The translations under genes were made by a program, and so were the position numbers. A stretch of DNA of 64,000 nt from a phage. The stretch lies in sequence record OZ346151.1. One strand, given 5' to 3'. Below, piece by piece: positions 13,963-42,827 of this stretch. A model generated the notes under the pieces. The model was not told where the DNA came from, made no database searches, and worked only from the letters and a program-made list of their open reading frames with translations. Within the stretch, counting starts at the first letter, position 1. Every line of letters starts with the position of its first letter.

Positions 13963-13993
13963 AAAAAGGGGCCAAACGGCCCCTTTCTTTTTA
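13963..13993. terminator. bidirectional rho-independent terminator between convergent transcription units
   Basis: AAAAA-GGGGCC-aaac-GGCCCC-TTTCTTTTT hairpin flanked by A-tract and T-tract. Confidence 0.7.
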
Positions 13994-14769: not shown

Positions 14770-15150
14770 TTATGACACTTTGACATAGCGCTCTGACAAA
14801 GCTGGGAAGCCAAAAGTAGTGCCTATACTACCATAGGCTATCCACCATTGGAGTTCATCGTGACACCATTTTCCGATCAGGAAGGTGCTGGGATAGCGGG
14901 TCAGTATTTTGGCATAAGCTTTAGGATCTGCATCTTCTGGGATAATGATGCTTGGAATATCTTTGTTATGACCACAGCAGCAGTTTAGCGTTTTCAAACC
15001 TGCTGCCCACAAACTCATGATAGGCTTAGCCATACACTTATCAAGGCACACACGTTTTTTGCCGTCACGAAGATTTTTAGGCACATCAACGATAACATTT
15101 GGATGCTTGGCACCTTTTACTTTCCAATTATAGGATTTACACTTGCACAT
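14770..15150 (-). CDS. Cys-rich hypothetical protein (126 aa)
   Basis: ATG with GGAG RBS; multiple Cys clusters (CKC, CLDKC, CCCGH). Confidence 0.45.
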   Translation of the reverse strand: MCKCKSYNWKVKGAKHPNVIVDVPKNLRDGKKRVCLDKCMAKPIMSLWAAGLKTLNCCCGHNKDIPSIIIPEDADPKAYAKILTRYPSTFLIGKWCHDELQWWIAYGSIGTTFGFPALSERYVKVS

Positions 15151-15843: not shown

Positions 15844-16119
15844 TCACACCTTCTCGTTGATAAATTTACGGGCGGTTTGGTGAGTTGTTTCTGCTGTCTT
15901 CAGAATGATATTAATTTTATCGTCAAGATCATTCATCTCGGCAGTTAATTCAGGAATCTCTCCGGCATGCATGGTGAAATCATACATAGACATGCCCAAG
16001 ATCTCATTGATGCGGCGGTTGCATTCTGCAGCACGCTGGTTCATTTTCCAAGCTAACACCAAAGCCTCCTGCGTAGCCTCTAGTGCAAAATCTAATACGT
16101 CGGCCTCTTCTTTCGTCAT
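15844..16119 (-). CDS. hypothetical protein (91 aa)
   Basis: ATG with AGGAGAG RBS. Confidence 0.45.
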   Translation of the reverse strand: MTKEEADVLDFALEATQEALVLAWKMNQRAAECNRRINEILGMSMYDFTMHAGEIPELTAEMNDLDDKINIILKTAETTHQTARKFINEKV

Positions 16120-16176
16120 CTTAGTCTCTCCTGTTGTATTGTTGGTAGGTGTATGAATACCTTATAACTCACCTTT

Positions 16177-16743
16177 TTATTCAAACTGCAATAGTAAGTC
16201 CACCACCGCGCTAGGTCTGTCAACAAATTCCCCAGGTCCACATGCCCACAGAGGGTATCCGTCTACATACCGCCAAATCCAACCTGCAGTGTGGAGTTCG
16301 AGCAGGGCAGTACCGTCCTTACTGTCAACCACTCTTTCCCACAGTGTCGGGCAGCGAAGCTTGAGGATCGGATCCCCTCCCTTATACCCATCCATGTAGA
16401 TACCCATTGCAAAGTTCAGCATCATCTTTTTGTGCACTGATCTTTTACTGAGGGTACTCATCACTTCCTCTTTGTGAATGTTTGTAAGCTTCTCCTTGGC
16501 TACCCGCAGATCGTTGCAACCATTGTTCAGCAGATCTTCCAGACACTTGATCCGAAGGTCGTGAATGTCTTTGTCGTGTACCGTTGGCACAGGGTCGTAG
16601 CGGTATAGCACTGTTGATACAAGGTTGCTCGGGTGTGGGTCTGACAGCAACCCATAACCCCAATACTCTTCTGTATCTGAAAGGACAAGACACCCAATGT
16701 CTCTGTCAAGCTTTCCTGTGTTGTAAGCCACATTGACCGCCAT
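16177..16743 (-). CDS. hypothetical protein (188 aa)
   Basis: ATG start in compact leftward operon; no motif recognised. Confidence 0.45.
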   Translation of the reverse strand: MAVNVAYNTGKLDRDIGCLVLSDTEEYWGYGLLSDPHPSNLVSTVLYRYDPVPTVHDKDIHDLRIKCLEDLLNNGCNDLRVAKEKLTNIHKEEVMSTLSKRSVHKKMMLNFAMGIYMDGYKGGDPILKLRCPTLWERVVDSKDGTALLELHTAGWIWRYVDGYPLWACGPGEFVDRPSAVVDLLLQFE

Positions 16744-16745
16744 GA

Positions 16746-16991
16746 CTATAGCTCCACTAGCAAAGTGCTTTCAAAGTGACGTTCATGCAGACCGTTGTAA
16801 GGGACCACTTCCACAACGCCATCACGGACATATGGGGCCATCATGGTGGTATAATCTCCAAACGGGTTGGTATTGTCACTAACCACAACCACCTTCTGCC
16901 CTTCCTTGGCAGAGTGCCAAATAGATCTGCACTTCATCAGGTGTTCGAGAGCCCCAGGTAAAATTTTGTTACGTTCTTTACGGGTCTTCAT
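16746..16991 (-). CDS. hypothetical protein (81 aa)
   Basis: Tightly packed with neighbours, 2-nt intergenic gap. Confidence 0.4.
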   Translation of the reverse strand: MKTRKERNKILPGALEHLMKCRSIWHSAKEGQKVVVVSDNTNPFGDYTTMMAPYVRDGVVEVVPYNGLHERHFESTLLVEL

Positions 16992-17437
16992 AACAGGTAT
17001 AGCTCCTTATGAAAGTGATCTTTTAATTTCTCACTGAGAAACTTCTTGATACCTTCCTCTAAAGTGTTTTCGATGTAGTCCAGCTTAACTGCTTCGATGG
17101 ACATATCATAGATCGCCAGCTCTAAGCTGTCAAGTCCCATCATAGCATGAACCATAAGATTTTCATCTTCAGATACATTCAGGGGACTTCCTATAACATC
17201 TGGAGGCAGAATAGTTTCCCAATTATTCTGGGTGGTAGTTCTCCCTCCCTCTACTTTACGGCGCAGTTCGAATGTGTTCTTAGTGTAGAACACTTCATAA
17301 GAAACGATACGACTGTCGCTCTCGTAATAAACGAAGTTCAGGTAGGAGCCTAGCCGCAGTCGGCAAACTTCTACCCCAAACCATTGTTTCTTATAAGAAT
17401 TCAGGCTAATGCTGTCGCATTCACGTTTGCTCAACAC
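16988..17437 (-). CDS. hypothetical protein (149 aa)
   Basis: Overlaps downstream gene by 4 nt. Confidence 0.45.
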   Translation of the reverse strand: MLSKRECDSISLNSYKKQWFGVEVCRLRLGSYLNFVYYESDSRIVSYEVFYTKNTFELRRKVEGGRTTTQNNWETILPPDVIGSPLNVSEDENLMVHAMMGLDSLELAIYDMSIEAVKLDYIENTLEEGIKKFLSEKLKDHFHKELYLL

Positions 17438-17453
17438 GGCTCTCTCCTTTTTG

Positions 17454-17690
17454 TTAATCTTCGTAAATCAGGATTTCTGCTTTAGGTTTTCGTGCTTTCA
17501 TGTCCAGCTCTATCCAGTGCACCATAGCTGTTTCAAGAAAAACAGCCTGGATGCATCCGTCCTCAGCAGCGTGTCCTAGCAGCATAACAAGATCTTCTCC
17601 TTCGTCATCTGCACCACGAACATACAGAATCTCCCCGGGTTCAAAATCTTTAACAACCTGATTGTTGGATAATTTACGAATTTTCGCCAT
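17454..17690 (-). CDS. small protein, member of tandem paralogue family (78 aa)
   Basis: Shares size and FxPGxxV ... I(L/I)xE C-terminal pattern with the three genes upstream. Confidence 0.45.
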   Translation of the reverse strand: MAKIRKLSNNQVVKDFEPGEILYVRGADDEGEDLVMLLGHAAEDGCIQAVFLETAMVHWIELDMKARKPKAEILIYED

Positions 17691-17691
17691 A

Positions 17692-17955
17692 TTAGAAACC
17701 CTCTAAAAAGCTCTTGTAGAAAATAATTTCAGTATCTACACCAGTCACGATCTTATCGTTCCTGATTTCATCTGTAAGGTAGGTGTCAAAACGCAGAACC
17801 TGTGTGGTGTTGTCACACATCCACTCAGCTGTGACCATTGCGAAAATCTTAGCATCTTCATTATCTGGTGTGAATGTTACCACCTCACCGCACTTAAACT
17901 TTTCGATAGGCTGAGTGTTAGCTTTCGGTTCTGCGATAGTGATTTTTGTGGTCAT
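17692..17955 (-). CDS. small protein, tandem paralogue family (87 aa)
   Basis: Same length class as neighbours; FKCGEVV motif. Confidence 0.45.
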   Translation of the reverse strand: MTTKITIAEPKANTQPIEKFKCGEVVTFTPDNEDAKIFAMVTAEWMCDNTTQVLRFDTYLTDEIRNDKIVTGVDTEIIFYKSFLEGF

Positions 17956-18218
17956 TATTCTCCTCCTTCTTTTGAATAGCTTGTCTCTCCAAGGATGGTA
18001 ATTTTGGTGTCAAGCTCTGTAACTTTCATGTTTGGCGGCAGATCGTACAACTCATTATTTTCTAAATCGAACCCCCACACACAATGTTCTCCTGTTTTGA
18101 CAATCATAACTATGTTTTGAATGCCGTCTCCGTCGCAACTTACCACAGTCCCACACGGAAAGCTGTCTGCACGCTTTTTGTTCTTCACCTTAGAATTGAA
18201 TACAATGCTGGTAGCCAT
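17955..18218 (-). CDS. small protein, tandem paralogue family (87 aa)
   Basis: MAT N-terminus, K-rich segment, PCGTVV, FDL and I-x-I-L-G-E shared with 18218..18481. Confidence 0.5.
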   Translation of the reverse strand: MATSIVFNSKVKNKKRADSFPCGTVVSCDGDGIQNIVMIVKTGEHCVWGFDLENNELYDLPPNMKVTELDTKITILGETSYSKEGGE

Positions 18219-18481
18219 TATTGTTCCTCCACCATAACTTCGCCAATAATTTCTATGCAGGCATCCATTTCTGTAACAACCAAACTGTGAGGTAGTTCTA
18301 CAAACACCTTTCTGAACAGGTCAAATACCCCAACATATATGTTTGCAGGATGTGATTTTACAACAAGTGCTGTATTCACATCCCCAAGTTCATCAACAAA
18401 CATCACCACAGTGCCTGGAGCTACTGAGGACAGATACTTCTTAGTTTTACGGTTTGATGCAAATTTTAACTCTGTTGCCAT
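18218..18481 (-). CDS. small protein, tandem paralogue family (87 aa)
   Basis: MAT N-terminus, PGTVV, FDL, IEIIGE; clear paralogue of 17955..18218. Confidence 0.5.
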   Translation of the reverse strand: MATELKFASNRKTKKYLSSVAPGTVVMFVDELGDVNTALVVKSHPANIYVGVFDLFRKVFVELPHSLVVTEMDACIEIIGEVMVEEQ

Positions 18482-18496
18482 AAATAACCTCCTCTC

Positions 18497-19978
18497 TTAC
18501 TTAGCGTACTCGATTAATTCCACAGTTTTACCAAAGCTCGGGATATAATTTTTATTATACCCCTCAGTGAGGACCCATAGAGTATCGTACTTTTTCCACT
18601 TGTTGTCAACAACCTTTTGTTCAAAGTTATGCTCAAAGTATAGGTCGGTCAGGACGATGACATCTTTTGCATTAGGTATGTTGGCATCCAGATACTCGAA
18701 CACGCAAGCAGCTGTTGTGCCCCATGTTGAGTGGACCTCATAGTTGATCATCTCGTCTATGTTGCCGCGAGTGTATACTTTAACCTCTCCAACCTCAGTT
18801 GACCAACAGAACATTGTAACCTTAAACTCTTTATACAGATTGCACAATCCGGTGATTTCATTGAACATTTTCTTTAAAGTTCTTTGAGAGATCGAGCCAG
18901 AAACGTCTAAAGCCACCACAATATCTATAGTGTTTTCCGGATTACGACCAGGAACAATAACGTGCTGGTTCTTGTTTATAGCCCCAACTTTTCGCATTGT
19001 GCTGGTCAAAGACCCAGATCGGCGACCAGGTTTTCTGTAGGTCAGTTCGGCCTTTCTTTTAGACAACATACGTTGCTTAATGATGTCTATATAGTTGATT
19101 ACAGGCTTACCTCTGTTCTTGACAAACTCACGCACCGCCTCAGGGCAACGGCCTCCGGACGCTTGCATTGCTGCCTCCAGCATATCACCAGAGTCCTGCA
19201 TGGCCTGATCTTTATCAGATTGGCTGATTACAGGTTGTGGCTGATCATACCCCATAGCCTTTCCAAGATTATCACTGGTGCCACCGTTCCCACTCATGTG
19301 ATCATCGGTTTGTCGCTTATCACTTTGAGAGTTCTCACCTTTACCGTTCTTACTTTTACCGTTATTCTGATCTCTTTGCTTATCAAGAACTGCATAAACG
19401 TTCTCAGCAATCCATCCATGAAACTTCATGTCGCAGTAGCAGCTGGCTAAGAAGCCAAAAGGCTTACCTTTCATGAACGTAGTGCTTTTCCCCTTCGGGA
19501 AGAAAACACAAGGGGGTTTGCTAAAGTCAACCACAAGGCCTGTGTTGATAACGTGATCACAAGCAATATTGAACAGTTCCGGCTCAAAGCTTTTACCACG
19601 GACTAGGTGATCACAGATAATATGCCCCACCTCATGTGACAGAAGGAAGGCCACCTCTTTCACAGATTTTGGGGAATAGAAAACTTCAGCCATCTCAAAC
19701 TGCTCGTCAGTTAGAGAAGCCTTAAGAATAGCCTTGCGCTCATCAGCCAATCCCATAATGAACTCAGGACTGTAATAGATGCGTTTATGGTCGGTTGCCA
19801 TGGTGGAGCACCATGTGTGGTTTTCTACGAACTGCAACCCTGACAGTAGTGTGCCATAAAACGGCAGCTTTTCAAGGAGATACATACGTGCAGCCTGCAA
19901 CATTCTCAGGGCATCATCTTTCTGCGAGGCAATGATTTCTGAACTTCTGCTATCCATTAAAACTCCAGAAGGGGCCAT
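18497..19978 (-). CDS. VWA-domain protein with N-terminal HExxH metallopeptidase-like domain (DUF2201-like architecture)
   Basis: HEVGH zinc-binding motif in LLSHEVGHIICDHL; C-terminal VWA MIDAS motif IVVALDVSGSI (DxSGS). Confidence 0.65.
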   Translation of the reverse strand: MAPSGVLMDSRSSEIIASQKDDALRMLQAARMYLLEKLPFYGTLLSGLQFVENHTWCSTMATDHKRIYYSPEFIMGLADERKAILKASLTDEQFEMAEVFYSPKSVKEVAFLLSHEVGHIICDHLVRGKSFEPELFNIACDHVINTGLVVDFSKPPCVFFPKGKSTTFMKGKPFGFLASCYCDMKFHGWIAENVYAVLDKQRDQNNGKSKNGKGENSQSDKRQTDDHMSGNGGTSDNLGKAMGYDQPQPVISQSDKDQAMQDSGDMLEAAMQASGGRCPEAVREFVKNRGKPVINYIDIIKQRMLSKRKAELTYRKPGRRSGSLTSTMRKVGAINKNQHVIVPGRNPENTIDIVVALDVSGSISQRTLKKMFNEITGLCNLYKEFKVTMFCWSTEVGEVKVYTRGNIDEMINYEVHSTWGTTAACVFEYLDANIPNAKDVIVLTDLYFEHNFEQKVVDNKWKKYDTLWVLTEGYNKNYIPSFGKTVELIEYAK

Positions 19979-19990
19979 CGGCCCCTGTCA

Positions 19991-21031
19991 TTATTTAACG
20001 TGTTTGAAAATACCTGCCAACTCGGTCATTGTCATGCGGGTGGTCTTCATAAGATCTGTCATAGCTTTCTCCATAATTGGAGATACTACCATAAAGTTTC
20101 CTTTAGTGAAACCTTTATTCCAGTCGGTCACCAACAGGGGTTTAAGTCCAGCTCCAAGACGTTCACCAGTTAAAGCACAGCATTTGCGAATATACGAACT
20201 CTTAAATTGGCTGAACGACAGATCAACTTTCATACCTACATCGTAGAACGTTTGACAATAGAAAGTGTAAGCTTTGGCAATCTCAACATCATCAGGTAGT
20301 GCAGGAACCTCTTCTGTAAGCTCCTCTTCGACCTCCTGAGTCTCTTTTTCCTCTTCATGCACCTGTTGCGTCATTTCTTCAATCTCTTCTGTGATAGGCT
20401 CGTTTACAATGTCGGAAATGTGCTTCTTGGGTGCACGATAAGTAACTTTAGACATCGGTAGCATATCTTCCTCCTCTTCTTCGTCAAAGAGTGCTAGTTT
20501 ATCCTCTTCCGTTCCATATTGCAAGATGAAATCTTCAAAAGTATAATCACCTTTCAATTTCTCCATACGCTCTTCGCTCAGGTGGAGCATCATCTGCTGG
20601 ACAATTTTTCGATCAGTTTCGTCTTTAATCAAGACTGCAGTCTTTTTATCTACCAGACAGTCCTTTAGAGAGTTGCATCTCAATCCCACCACACAACAGT
20701 TATCAACCGCATAAGGACCTTCATCATCTATCCGCTCCAGAGATGGGTAGAAAGGATTCCCCAGCCCGTTTTCATCTGTGTGCATGTCAAAAGGTATAAG
20801 GGTATAGTCGCATACTCCATCTCCTAAAAGTTTTTTACCAAATAGGAGGTATTCTTCCCATGACAGGTCGAACTCTATATCTCGTTTCCGTGCGTTATTC
20901 TGTTTGCGTCTATATTTTTTGAGCAAGCGCTCTAACTCTTCTGGTGTATAATATTTTTCAAGATTCATGAGTCGTCTCTCGTGCTCTGTAAGTGAAGAAA
21001 TCGTATCAATTGTCTCAACAGATGTCAACAT
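19991..21031 (-). CDS. Glu-rich protein with two internally duplicated Cys-containing domains (degenerate HNH or His-Me-finger-like)
   Basis: N-terminal CDYTLIPF...SLERIDDEGPY...N..K repeated C-terminally as CCALTGERL...LLVTDWNKGF...N; acidic linker; weak RBS so start uncertain. Confidence 0.4.
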   Translation of the reverse strand: MLTSVETIDTISSLTEHERRLMNLEKYYTPEELERLLKKYRRKQNNARKRDIEFDLSWEEYLLFGKKLLGDGVCDYTLIPFDMHTDENGLGNPFYPSLERIDDEGPYAVDNCCVVGLRCNSLKDCLVDKKTAVLIKDETDRKIVQQMMLHLSEERMEKLKGDYTFEDFILQYGTEEDKLALFDEEEEEDMLPMSKVTYRAPKKHISDIVNEPITEEIEEMTQQVHEEEKETQEVEEELTEEVPALPDDVEIAKAYTFYCQTFYDVGMKVDLSFSQFKSSYIRKCCALTGERLGAGLKPLLVTDWNKGFTKGNFMVVSPIMEKAMTDLMKTTRMTMTELAGIFKHVK

Positions 21032-23296: not shown

Positions 23297-23340
23297 TGGG
23301 CAGGAATGGCGGCAAGGATGCCGCTTAAGGAGTAGTAGAG

Positions 23341-23610
23341 ATGTTATACCAGCAATATGAACTTCGTGCAGAAAAAGAGTTAAATTTTGACAAAGATATT
23401 CACAGATATTATTATGGGAAAGTTAGAGGGCAAGCAAGAAAGTGTACTCCAACACTCTTTTATGCCAGCAGACGACTAGCGCCAGAAGAGGCAACAGCAG
23501 AAAGGGTTGCGTACAACTGGAGAGTCACGTATGATATTGACAGATTCGATGTGATATCTGTTTTGGAAAACTTTGAAAACACTTACACACAAGTAGAGGA
23601 CTTTTACTAA
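23341..23610 (+). CDS. hypothetical protein (89 aa)
   Basis: ATG start; stop overlaps next start. Confidence 0.45.
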   Translation: MLYQQYELRAEKELNFDKDIHRYYYGKVRGQARKCTPTLFYASRRLAPEEATAERVAYNWRVTYDIDRFDVISVLENFENTYTQVEDFY

Positions 23611-24794
23611 TGTCAAGAAACGTATTCGAAAGTGGTCAAATCACTGTCCGTGAGTTGCCAGCTATTATTCAGTTTGCCCAACGTCATAGCCGATCTGTCC
23701 TAATTTTGGGACCAATGGGTGTGGGTAAAAGCCAGGTGATGAAGCAGATCGCTGATAATATGTTCGGTGAGCGAGATGACAACCTTGTTGACGTGCGACT
23801 GTCAGATAAAGATCCTGCCGACTTATCTGGGCTACCTATCCCTGTAGAAGCGGATGGAACTACACGTACAGTGTTTGCAATTCCAGAATTTTGGCCTGCG
23901 GATCCTGACTGGAGCGGAATTATCTTTCTGGATGAGCTCACTCATGCAGATAACTACCTGCAAAAGGTTGCAATGCAAATTATGCTTGACCACAAGTGCG
24001 GCACCTATGCATTCCCTAAGGGTTCTGTTTTTGTGGCTGCGGGTAACCGTTCTACAGATGGTGCGGTTCTTTCGGCGCTCGAAGCCCCTCTGGCTAACCG
24101 TTTTATCATTGTAGAGGTTACAAGCAATGCAGAGGTGTTTATTGAGGACTACGCATTCCTCAACGGGGTTCACTCCTCTGTAATTGGGTATCTGAAAAGA
24201 GTTCCATCAGCTATTGATAATTATGAGGCTATGGCTGAGATTAATTGTCCATCTTTTGCCACACCACGATCTTGGGTTGCTGCATCTGACATCTTGCACG
24301 ATTTTGACAGCGGTATTATTTCTGACGCTATGGCCCGTGTTCTTCTGCAAGGTGCTATTGGTCACACTGCAGCGGTAGAGATCTGGACATACCACACCAA
24401 GAAACGCAATTTACCGGAAATCGGTCGGATTATGGCAGGTGGCTGCAAAGAATACGTAGGCCCTAAGCAGCCAGACATTTTGTGGATTCTTGGATCTGAA
24501 GGTTGTATCGCTATTCGTAATATGATGGAAAATGCAAGTATCTCAGACGAAGATCTTGTCAGCTGTGTGGCAAACTTCCTCGATTTCCTTTGGGAAAACT
24601 TCAAGGACGAGAACCGAGATTTTGTATTCTCAGTCTTTATGGCGATGATGAAACCTAATGCCTTAGGAAATGCCTTGCTTATCGGTAAAGGGCGTGACAA
24701 GATTGTTGCTCAGCTGATCAAAGCATACCCAAACCTGATGAAGATTGTAAAAGAGTTTGGTGAAGAGTTTAGCGCCATTTTGGCTAAAGCTTAA
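23610..24794 (+). CDS. MoxR-like AAA+ ATPase
   Basis: Walker A GPMGVGKS, Walker B IIFLDEL, sensor-1-like VAAGN, about 390 aa with a C-terminal helical extension. Confidence 0.7.
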   Translation: MSRNVFESGQITVRELPAIIQFAQRHSRSVLILGPMGVGKSQVMKQIADNMFGERDDNLVDVRLSDKDPADLSGLPIPVEADGTTRTVFAIPEFWPADPDWSGIIFLDELTHADNYLQKVAMQIMLDHKCGTYAFPKGSVFVAAGNRSTDGAVLSALEAPLANRFIIVEVTSNAEVFIEDYAFLNGVHSSVIGYLKRVPSAIDNYEAMAEINCPSFATPRSWVAASDILHDFDSGIISDAMARVLLQGAIGHTAAVEIWTYHTKKRNLPEIGRIMAGGCKEYVGPKQPDILWILGSEGCIAIRNMMENASISDEDLVSCVANFLDFLWENFKDENRDFVFSVFMAMMKPNALGNALLIGKGRDKIVAQLIKAYPNLMKIVKEFGEEFSAILAKA

Positions 24795-42333: not shown

Positions 42334-42401
42334 GAGACTGTAATAGCTATGTTTTATGATCTTCCTGTAGCACCACCACCTGTTGAACCCGGAGAACTAA
42401 G

Positions 42402-42827
42402 ATGATCTATGAAATGCCAAAACTGATTCGTGACGATGCCCAAAACGCCCACACCTTTATCATGGGCAAGCGCATGGATATTATTTGTCATAAAGATTTC
42501 TGGGAAGGTAGTTACTTCACAGAATATTTTGGTAAACTGGATAATGGTCTGCTGATCCAGTTCTACACCGATGCGGAAAACAATATCTGCTGGGAGTTCG
42601 AAACTGAAGATATCCATAAACTTTTCACCTTCCTAGGTATTAAGGTTGAGGCCAAGTTTGAAGAAGGCGAGTGCGACGATTGTGGATTCTACGAGGTAAC
42701 AGATTTCTATCTCCCAAGTGGTGAGAACCTTTACTATGAAAGCCACTTCGGCAACTCAAATATGCCACAAGGTTGGGATGAGTTTTTTGAAATTGCGGAA
42801 GAGGAGCTGACATACCGTGATTATTGA
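42402..42827 (+). CDS. hypothetical protein (141 aa)
   Basis: GGAGAA RBS; stop overlaps macrodomain gene start. Confidence 0.45.
   Translation: MIYEMPKLIRDDAQNAHTFIMGKRMDIICHKDFWEGSYFTEYFGKLDNGLLIQFYTDAENNICWEFETEDIHKLFTFLGIKVEAKFEEGECDDCGFYEVTDFYLPSGENLYYESHFGNSNMPQGWDEFFEIAEEELTYRDY

Follow-up and report, generated by a model that had tools for sequence, protein, structure and literature searches.

The adjacent modA and modB genes of phage T4, which encode ADP-ribosyltransferases, exemplify tandem paralogous genes of the early or accessory type, and large lytic phages often carry small accessory genes that have been duplicated in tandem. The rV5-like phages, which are among the phages most commonly isolated on Escherichia coli, have found use in typing, in biocontrol and as components of therapy cocktails; to our knowledge, a function has been assigned to only a minority of their non-structural genes. 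In the rV5 genome, genes 11-26, including the relatives of the array described here, constitute one sigma-70-driven transcription unit, and its gp11 is regarded as a homologue of Srd; the late morphogenesis genes (27-66) are apart from this unit (PMC3606486).

The DNA analysed here, hereafter the window, is a stretch of 64,000 nucleotides from the record OZ346151.1. Its positions 16000-20000 match Escherichia phage naswa (MN850595) at 100%. Phage naswa is an rV5-like member of the genus Vequintavirus (species V. murica), and many other rV5-like phages match this segment at 98-99% identity. Sixteen records (MG0656xx) that carry the name 'Campylobacter phage' and list Campylobacter jejuni as host reach up to 99.7% identity (record C12) with E. 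coli rV5-like phages over this region, and their host labels look doubtful.

The initial annotation of the window described four consecutive leftward genes of 78-87 aa separated by 0-2 nt and viewed them as a tandem array of paralogues. These four minus-strand ORFs are present and coincide with the annotated CDSs of four hypothetical genes, naswa_80 to naswa_83 (g80-g83, Table 1). At the g83/g82 and g82/g81 junctions, the stop and start codons overlap by 1 nt (TAATG), and a 1-nt gap separates g81 from g80 (TAAtATG). All four proteins are full-length members of PHROGs (E=1e-41 to 1e-62) for which the listed function is unknown, and GenBank notes assign both g82 and g83 to the pVOG VOG5597.

Table 1. 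Position of the array, its neighbours and associated signals. Coordinates refer to the window, except for the Seunavirus gene (loci L012 and L013).
Feature	Position	Strand	Description
Candidate sigma-70 promoter of the leftward unit of the array	21000-21028	-	TTGACA-17-TACGAT with TG; consensus match only
VWA/metallopeptidase gene	18497-19978	-	493 aa; DUF2201_N and VWA-like domain; upstream neighbour, left slot border
Shine-Dalgarno of g83	18488-18496	-	GAGAGGAGG; directly after the VWA/metallopeptidase stop codon
g83 (naswa_83)	18218-18481	-	87 aa; pI 5.0; slot-1 paralogue A; phrog_10698 (E=2e-42)
g82 (naswa_82)	17955-18218	-	87 aa; pI 4.9; slot-1 paralogue B; phrog_10698
Exchangeable cassette	17967-18466	-	g83 minus its first 15 nt and g82 minus its last 12 nt
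g81 (naswa_81)	17692-17955	-	87 aa; pI 4.5; phrog_12861
g80 (naswa_80)	17454-17690	-	78 aa; pI 4.7; phrog_12046
g79	16988-17437	-	149 aa; GTG start; rV5 gp017-like; downstream neighbour, right slot border
Palindromic terminator	13965-13986		From sequence scan
Seunavirus 85-aa gene	L012 1737-1994; L013 1731-1988		PVP-SE1 gene 217 (L012)

The proteins encoded by g80-g83 share only 15-38% identity. When Smith-Waterman scores were compared with those of 1000 shuffles, g83-g82 (z=17), g81-g80 (z=6.3, p about 2e-4) and g82-g81 (z=4.7, p about 1e-3) were found to be related, and g83-g81, g83-g80 and g82-g80 were weak or non-significant as direct pairs; for some pairs, the similarity is thus beyond chance only transitively. 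Profile comparisons by hhalign gave E=1e-5 for the g82/g83 family against g81, E=6e-4 for g81 against g80 and E=0.06 for g82/g83 against g80. When 1.84 billion representatives were searched with a profile of the four paralogues, 10 matches were retrieved, including an 83-aa protein from metagenomic phages (P0016) that is encoded by a single-copy gene. Nine of these matches are family-like small proteins or fragments and the tenth, a repetitive protein of 1,684 aa, was taken as spurious. The single-copy type has significant similarities to each of the four genes in shuffle tests (z=7.9, 8.1, 6.3 and 6.7, the last for g80).

An HMM was also built exclusively from outside sequences (61 members of the single-copy clade, none from the window) and searched against the 733 stop-to-stop ORFs of the window. 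The top four ORFs were g82, g80, g83 and g81 (E 2.4e-4 to 4.4e-3, with E=3.4e-4 for g80), all aligned over their full length from the start methionine, and the next-best ORF had E=1.8, so that no fifth member of the family was found among the 733 ORFs. Altogether, these sequence comparisons show that g80-g83 are true, deeply diverged paralogues of a single gene family, with a similarity that goes beyond composition; the tandem paralogous array put forward by the initial annotation is thus upheld. The single-copy clade is an intermediate that unifies phrog_10698, phrog_12861 and phrog_12046 in one family, whereas the PHROG and pVOG databases treat them as three unrelated families. With g83 as the only query, a word-indexed protein search returned only relatives with at least 92% identity, and tblastn with g83 and g81 against 50,697 phage records gave no match outside Vequintavirus at E<=1.

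Several small genes of the same region were considered as additional members. Two genes of naswa, g78 (81 aa) and g76 (91 aa), were rejected by shuffle tests, a marginal g82-g76 score (z=3.2) being absent from the HMM results. The Seunavirus phages carry, between their Srd-like and VWA genes, an 85-aa gene without counterpart in Vequintavirus; this PVP-SE1/EspYZU12 gene was rejected as a displaced member of the family (z<=2.3).

The array occupies a syntenic slot, the gene order being the Srd-like gene, the DUF2201 metallopeptidase/VWA gene, the slot, the gp017-like gene and the gp018-like gene. The number of family genes found in this slot differs between relatives. It is empty in Seunavirus (PVP-SE1 and EspYZU12), where the gp017-like gene overlaps the end of the VWA gene. 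It harbours one family gene in a metagenomic sister clade (IMG/VR 3300045988 contigs), three in rV5, FV3 and Pr121LW (gp014, gp015 and gp016) and four in naswa, Murica, ECP26 and Aya. Among 118 Vequintavirus records, 44 carry two phrog_10698 genes and 74 carry one. An IMG/VR scan using g79 as anchor yielded seven loci and no further copy-number states. The occurrence of zero, one, three and four copies in one syntenic slot supports growth by tandem duplication, in agreement with the amplification initially suggested.

The difference between three and four copies does not result from a recent duplication, as nucleotide comparisons show. Blastn homology between naswa and rV5, FV3 or Pr121LW ends at 18467, 15 nt into g83, and restarts at 17966, 11 nt ahead of the start of g81. 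Between these points, a cassette of 500 bp (g83 and g82) in naswa corresponds to one of 230 bp (gp014 type) in the three-gene phages. The flanks are 93-97% identical, whereas no nucleotide similarity between the two slot-1 cassettes is detectable by blastn; the gp014 protein is about 40-42% identical to both g83 and g82. Since Pr121LW belongs to the same species (murica) as naswa and has the rV5-type cassette, the cassette has been exchanged by recombination. The recombination sites would be the conserved gene start ATGGCNAC and the junction of Shine-Dalgarno and TAATG, both of which recur at every gene boundary. Taken as a whole, the history of the slot is as follows: a single ancestral gene located between the VWA/metallopeptidase and gp017-like genes underwent tandem duplication, leading to the three copies of the rV5 type, and in the Murica/naswa type, slot 1 holds two genes instead of one, this slot being swapped as a cassette.

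A member of the family was also found alone in a distant phage. In an unrelated 137-kb phage contig, where the Srd-like and VWA proteins share just 37% and 46% identity with those of naswa, there is a g81-like gene (P0008) displaying 82% amino acid and 81% nucleotide identity (window 17708-17968). This solo gene lies immediately upstream of the Srd-like gene and at a distance from the VWA gene, and no other member of the family was found within 18 kb. The presence of a lone g81 at 82% identity beside diverged core genes shows horizontal transfer of a single paralogue, and its occurrence alone in a distant phage shows that g81 is independent of its neighbours. The same contig encodes two adjacent 142-aa proteins (L025 8080-8508 and 8558-8986) that are 73% and 62% identical to the products of two naswa genes lying far apart, at 42387-42824 (+) and 14773-15150 (-). 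As the core genes are 31-46% identical, these values suggest a cluster of horizontally exchanged accessory genes.

Comparison of naswa with Aya, ECP26, rV5 and FV3 gave dN/dS values of 0-0.03 for g81 (for example, 16-18 synonymous versus 0-2 non-synonymous differences), 0.09-0.13 for g80, 0-0.15 for g82 and 0.19-0.33 for g83, similar to those of the flanking genes. All four are therefore real genes that are separately under purifying selection, and no sign of positive selection among orthologues was seen in this comparison. In all 118 Vequintavirus records, g81 and g80 occur together and are 90-100% conserved; the latter is the most diverged of the four paralogues and is kept across the genus. 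The gene g83 is confined to the approximately 44 'four-gene' genomes.

The initial annotation considered that such an amplification suggests a dosage-dependent or diversifying function, for instance in host takeover or anti-defence. The first proposal, according to which the copies would serve a larger output of one product, can draw on the tandem layout and the similar lengths of the genes. However, the copies are far from near-identical (15-38%, as indicated above), the alternative slot-1 cassettes have no detected nucleotide similarity, and the genes belong to three PHROG families in which every group of orthologues is conserved separately, g81 and g80 being retained in 118 genomes. Dosage amplification is thus effectively refuted and retains hardly any probability. 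The second proposal fares better, but only in part: the paralogues are deeply diverged and slot 1 is exchanged, while orthologues evolve without detected positive selection.

The sequence motifs on which the array was first recognized are partly borne out by the alignment. The residues conserved in all paralogues are M1, F20 (nearly invariant), G23 and an isoleucine near the C-terminus (both invariant), together with a few hydrophobic positions. Of the (F)xPGxVV motif initially reported, the phenylalanine, the glycine and the V/I following it are retained, but the proline is not conserved. Likewise, the lysine-rich N-terminus attributed to all four proteins is limited to g82, g83 and rV5 gp014. 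The few shared hydrophobic and glycine residues would be consistent with a conserved core bearing divergent surfaces.

The C-terminal pattern has a mixed origin. A GGAGG-type Shine-Dalgarno sequence can be read before every start of g80-g83, and RBS annotations are found at the matching places in phage Murica; every gene of the array thus possesses a strong ribosome binding site. Those of g82, g81 and g80 sit within the final codons of the preceding paralogue (tail windows 18218-18235, 17955-17975 and 17692-17705 on the minus strand). The acidic or glycine-containing tails of g83 (VEEQ), g82 (EGGE) and g81 (LEGF) arise because the Shine-Dalgarno of the next gene is encoded there, and part of the C-terminal 'motif' is therefore a translation-initiation constraint. 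The I-x-I strand that precedes these tails is truly conserved.

The structure of g82 was predicted with AlphaFold2, with a pLDDT of 73 from a 10-sequence alignment and of 81.7 (pTM 0.69) from an 82-sequence alignment. In this model, which contains only beta structure, an extended N-terminal beta segment leads into a barrel. The predicted barrel agrees with the SH3-like small beta-barrel fold, defined as a five-stranded, strongly bent antiparallel barrel of ~50-60 residues superposable on solved SH3, Tudor or KOW domains. It does not agree with the ring-forming Sm/Hfq-like barrels, which are defined by an N-terminal alpha-helix ahead of the Sm1/Sm2 barrel. It corresponds to a generic SH3-like small beta-barrel from which no particular functional family stands out. 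Foldseek comparison with BFVD retrieved the family's own members and many uncharacterised phage proteins of 70-90 aa. These include proteins of similar length from the Kuravirus-like phages SU7, LAMP, 172-1 and ECBP2 and N4 gp21 (TM 0.55-0.68), for which sequence identity is 11-22% and E only 1e-3 to 5e-2. As these fold matches have no known function, they add no mechanism.

None of the 82 members of the family matches the KOW, Tudor or CarD_TRCF_RID Pfam families at E<=1, matches to other Pfam families are likewise lacking, and in a PDB sequence search, the 82-member profile gave only chance-level matches (pilin, E=0.08; bL19, E=0.54). The label DUF1883 (PF08980), attached to P0035 by its source, was examined by hmmscan and rejected, with 0/82 members matching at E<=1; nothing usable concerning this lead was found in the literature. 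Searches in Pfam, NCBIfam, PHROGs, PDB sequences and by fold found no functional homologue, and no match to known anti-defence proteins (anti-CRISPR proteins, or DNA mimics of the Ocr/Ard type) was obtained at either the sequence or the fold level. All members are acidic (pI 4.2-5.0, net charge -4 to -9); the first 20 residues of g82 and g83 are basic. The best explanation is that each paralogue is a soluble acidic protein of ~9-10 kDa with a predicted SH3/Tudor/KOW-like barrel and that the family is restricted to the Vequintavirus group. It can be compared with the Tudor, KOW, ribosomal L2 C-terminal, EF-P domain I, UvrD/PcrA C-terminal Tudor and CarD RID domains without belonging to any of them at the sequence level. 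Unlike the families of the SH3-like superfold, g80-g83 have an additional N-terminal beta extension, are strongly acidic and are stand-alone proteins of 78-87 aa.

In UvrD/PcrA and in CarD, a Tudor-like domain serves to bind the beta subunit of RNA polymerase. By analogy, the paralogues might be small barrels of the KOW, L2 or EF-P type, able to bind nucleic acids and to modulate transcription or translation, for example by binding RNA polymerase or the ribosome. The basic N-terminal hairpin of g82 and g83, a weak N-terminal resemblance to bL19 and the location in the same operon as a Srd-like gene annotated as an anti-sigma factor would fit such a role. However, the net negative charge of the proteins is unfavourable to it, no member out of 82 has a KOW, CarD_TRCF_RID or ribosomal Pfam match, the bL19 match is not significant and the fold matches are generic, which makes this explanation quite improbable.

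The expression context is that of the rV5 transcription unit mentioned above; a candidate promoter and a palindromic terminator are present in the window (Table 1). The literature search brought up no study addressing either the transcription or the function of these genes. The promoter type and gene position suggest an early timing for g80-g83. One might alternatively consider them as minor virion or assembly proteins, as the neighbouring g79 matches phrog_6790, named 'tail protein'. However, no tryptic peptide of rV5 gp14, gp15 or gp16 is present in the supplementary virion MS file, and the virion proteins listed in the rV5 paper come from genes 30-64 and 133, while the array belongs to the sigma-70 unit 11-26. 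A virion role is therefore very improbable, and g80-g83 are probably non-virion products of an early-type operon. The name of g79 is copied by RefSeq, and one record says 'putative holin'. This gene has a GTG start and lies in the early-type operon; its label 'tail protein' may be unreliable.

The upstream neighbour of the array harbours a DUF2201_N putative metallopeptidase domain and a VWA-like domain (Pfam E=4e-28 and 6e-11). It is a single 493-aa ORF in naswa and is split in gp012 and gp013 in the rV5 reference NC_011041 (L003 1024-2485), owing to a frameshift or a sequencing error. RefSeq annotates gp011 (Srd-like) and gp012 as 'HNH endonuclease', which conflicts with the Pfam assignment to DUF2201_N/DUF2201 and with the Srd-like assignment. 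A MoxR-type ATPase is encoded at 23340-24793 (+) by naswa_91 (270 nt) and naswa_92 (1185 nt), which overlap by one base and may be a split gene or a gene with a small upstream partner; this ATPase is likely the partner of the VWA/metallopeptidase.

This neighbourhood raises the alternative that the paralogues are subunits of a hetero-oligomer, produced in fixed proportions through translational coupling, maybe together with the VWA/metallopeptidase and the MoxR ATPase. The stop/start overlaps and fixed gene order, the joint presence of g81 and g80 in 118 genomes, and the position of the array directly downstream of the DUF2201 VWA/metallopeptidase gene, with the MoxR ATPase gene ~5 kb away on the other strand, are in line with such a complex. 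However, the sister clade has one copy, Seunavirus has none and yet keeps the VWA gene, one or two genes are interchangeable in slot 1, and g81 is found alone in another phage, distant from the VWA gene and with no other member within 18 kb. Such a complex thus appears unlikely.

The reading preferred here is that the paralogues are independent early small proteins that would bind different host or defence factors, and we would give it a probability of about 0.45. In this model, each paralogue would be a small binding module acting on its own and expressed before virion assembly. The barrel surface of each paralogue would have its own binding partner among the host or host-defence proteins. 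Duplication, divergence and the exchange of the slot-1 cassette would then widen or change the set of targets rather than increase a dose. As no functional homologue was found, the binding-module or anti-host role is drawn from context and analogy only; it is compatible, as is the initially suggested host takeover or anti-defence, with the location in a sigma-70 unit by a Srd-like gene, with the absence from the virion MS data and with the transfer of g81 alone. The finding of purifying and not positive selection gives weaker support to an arms race than raised dN/dS values would. In addition, a broad anti-restriction activity of these proteins is unlikely, since the BASEL study (PMC8594841) described the Vequintavirinae as unusually sensitive to restriction-modification systems. 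Much greater confidence, close to certainty, attaches to the descriptive part, i.e. the family, the predicted barrel, the selection, the expansion, the cassette exchange and the solo g81.

A bolder version, in which these single-domain SH3-like proteins would form a hitherto unrecognised class of phage inhibitors and each paralogue would neutralise a different host defence or host factor, is unlikely on present evidence. If true, the one- or two-gene cassette of slot 1 and the spread of g81 would be traces left by an arms race deciding which E. coli strains can be infected by an rV5-like phage. The cassette polymorphism among near-identical phages offers a ready comparison of 44 four-gene with 74 three-gene genomes, usable for differences in host range or defence sensitivity; judging by the record names, the BASEL collection appears to include several members of both types, among them the four-gene phages EmilHeitz, CarlMeissner, WalterGehring and MaxTheCat and the three-gene phage JohannBauhin.

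Small genes have repeatedly been duplicated in tandem in the naswa genome. Further paralogue pairs were observed in the window (27-43% identity, E 1e-7 to 1e-93): at least two are tandem pairs of small genes, 38297-38602/38606-38938 (+) and 61593-61856/61837-62070 (-), and two larger pairs lie at 58986-59390/61193-61597 (-) and 3123-4172/5155-6228 (+). Concerning g80-g83, the annotation as hypothetical proteins and the PHROG and pVOG memberships were already known; the unification of the family, the assignment of a predicted fold and the evolutionary series are new. The array is an ordinary expansion of accessory genes, notable mainly for its clearly traceable growth from one to four copies. 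It has in common with tandem genes of the T4 modA/modB type that small duplicates lie in non-structural transcription units. It differs from them in that it comprises four members that are far more diverged, and in that its relatives reveal a traceable series of copy numbers and a polymorphic cassette.
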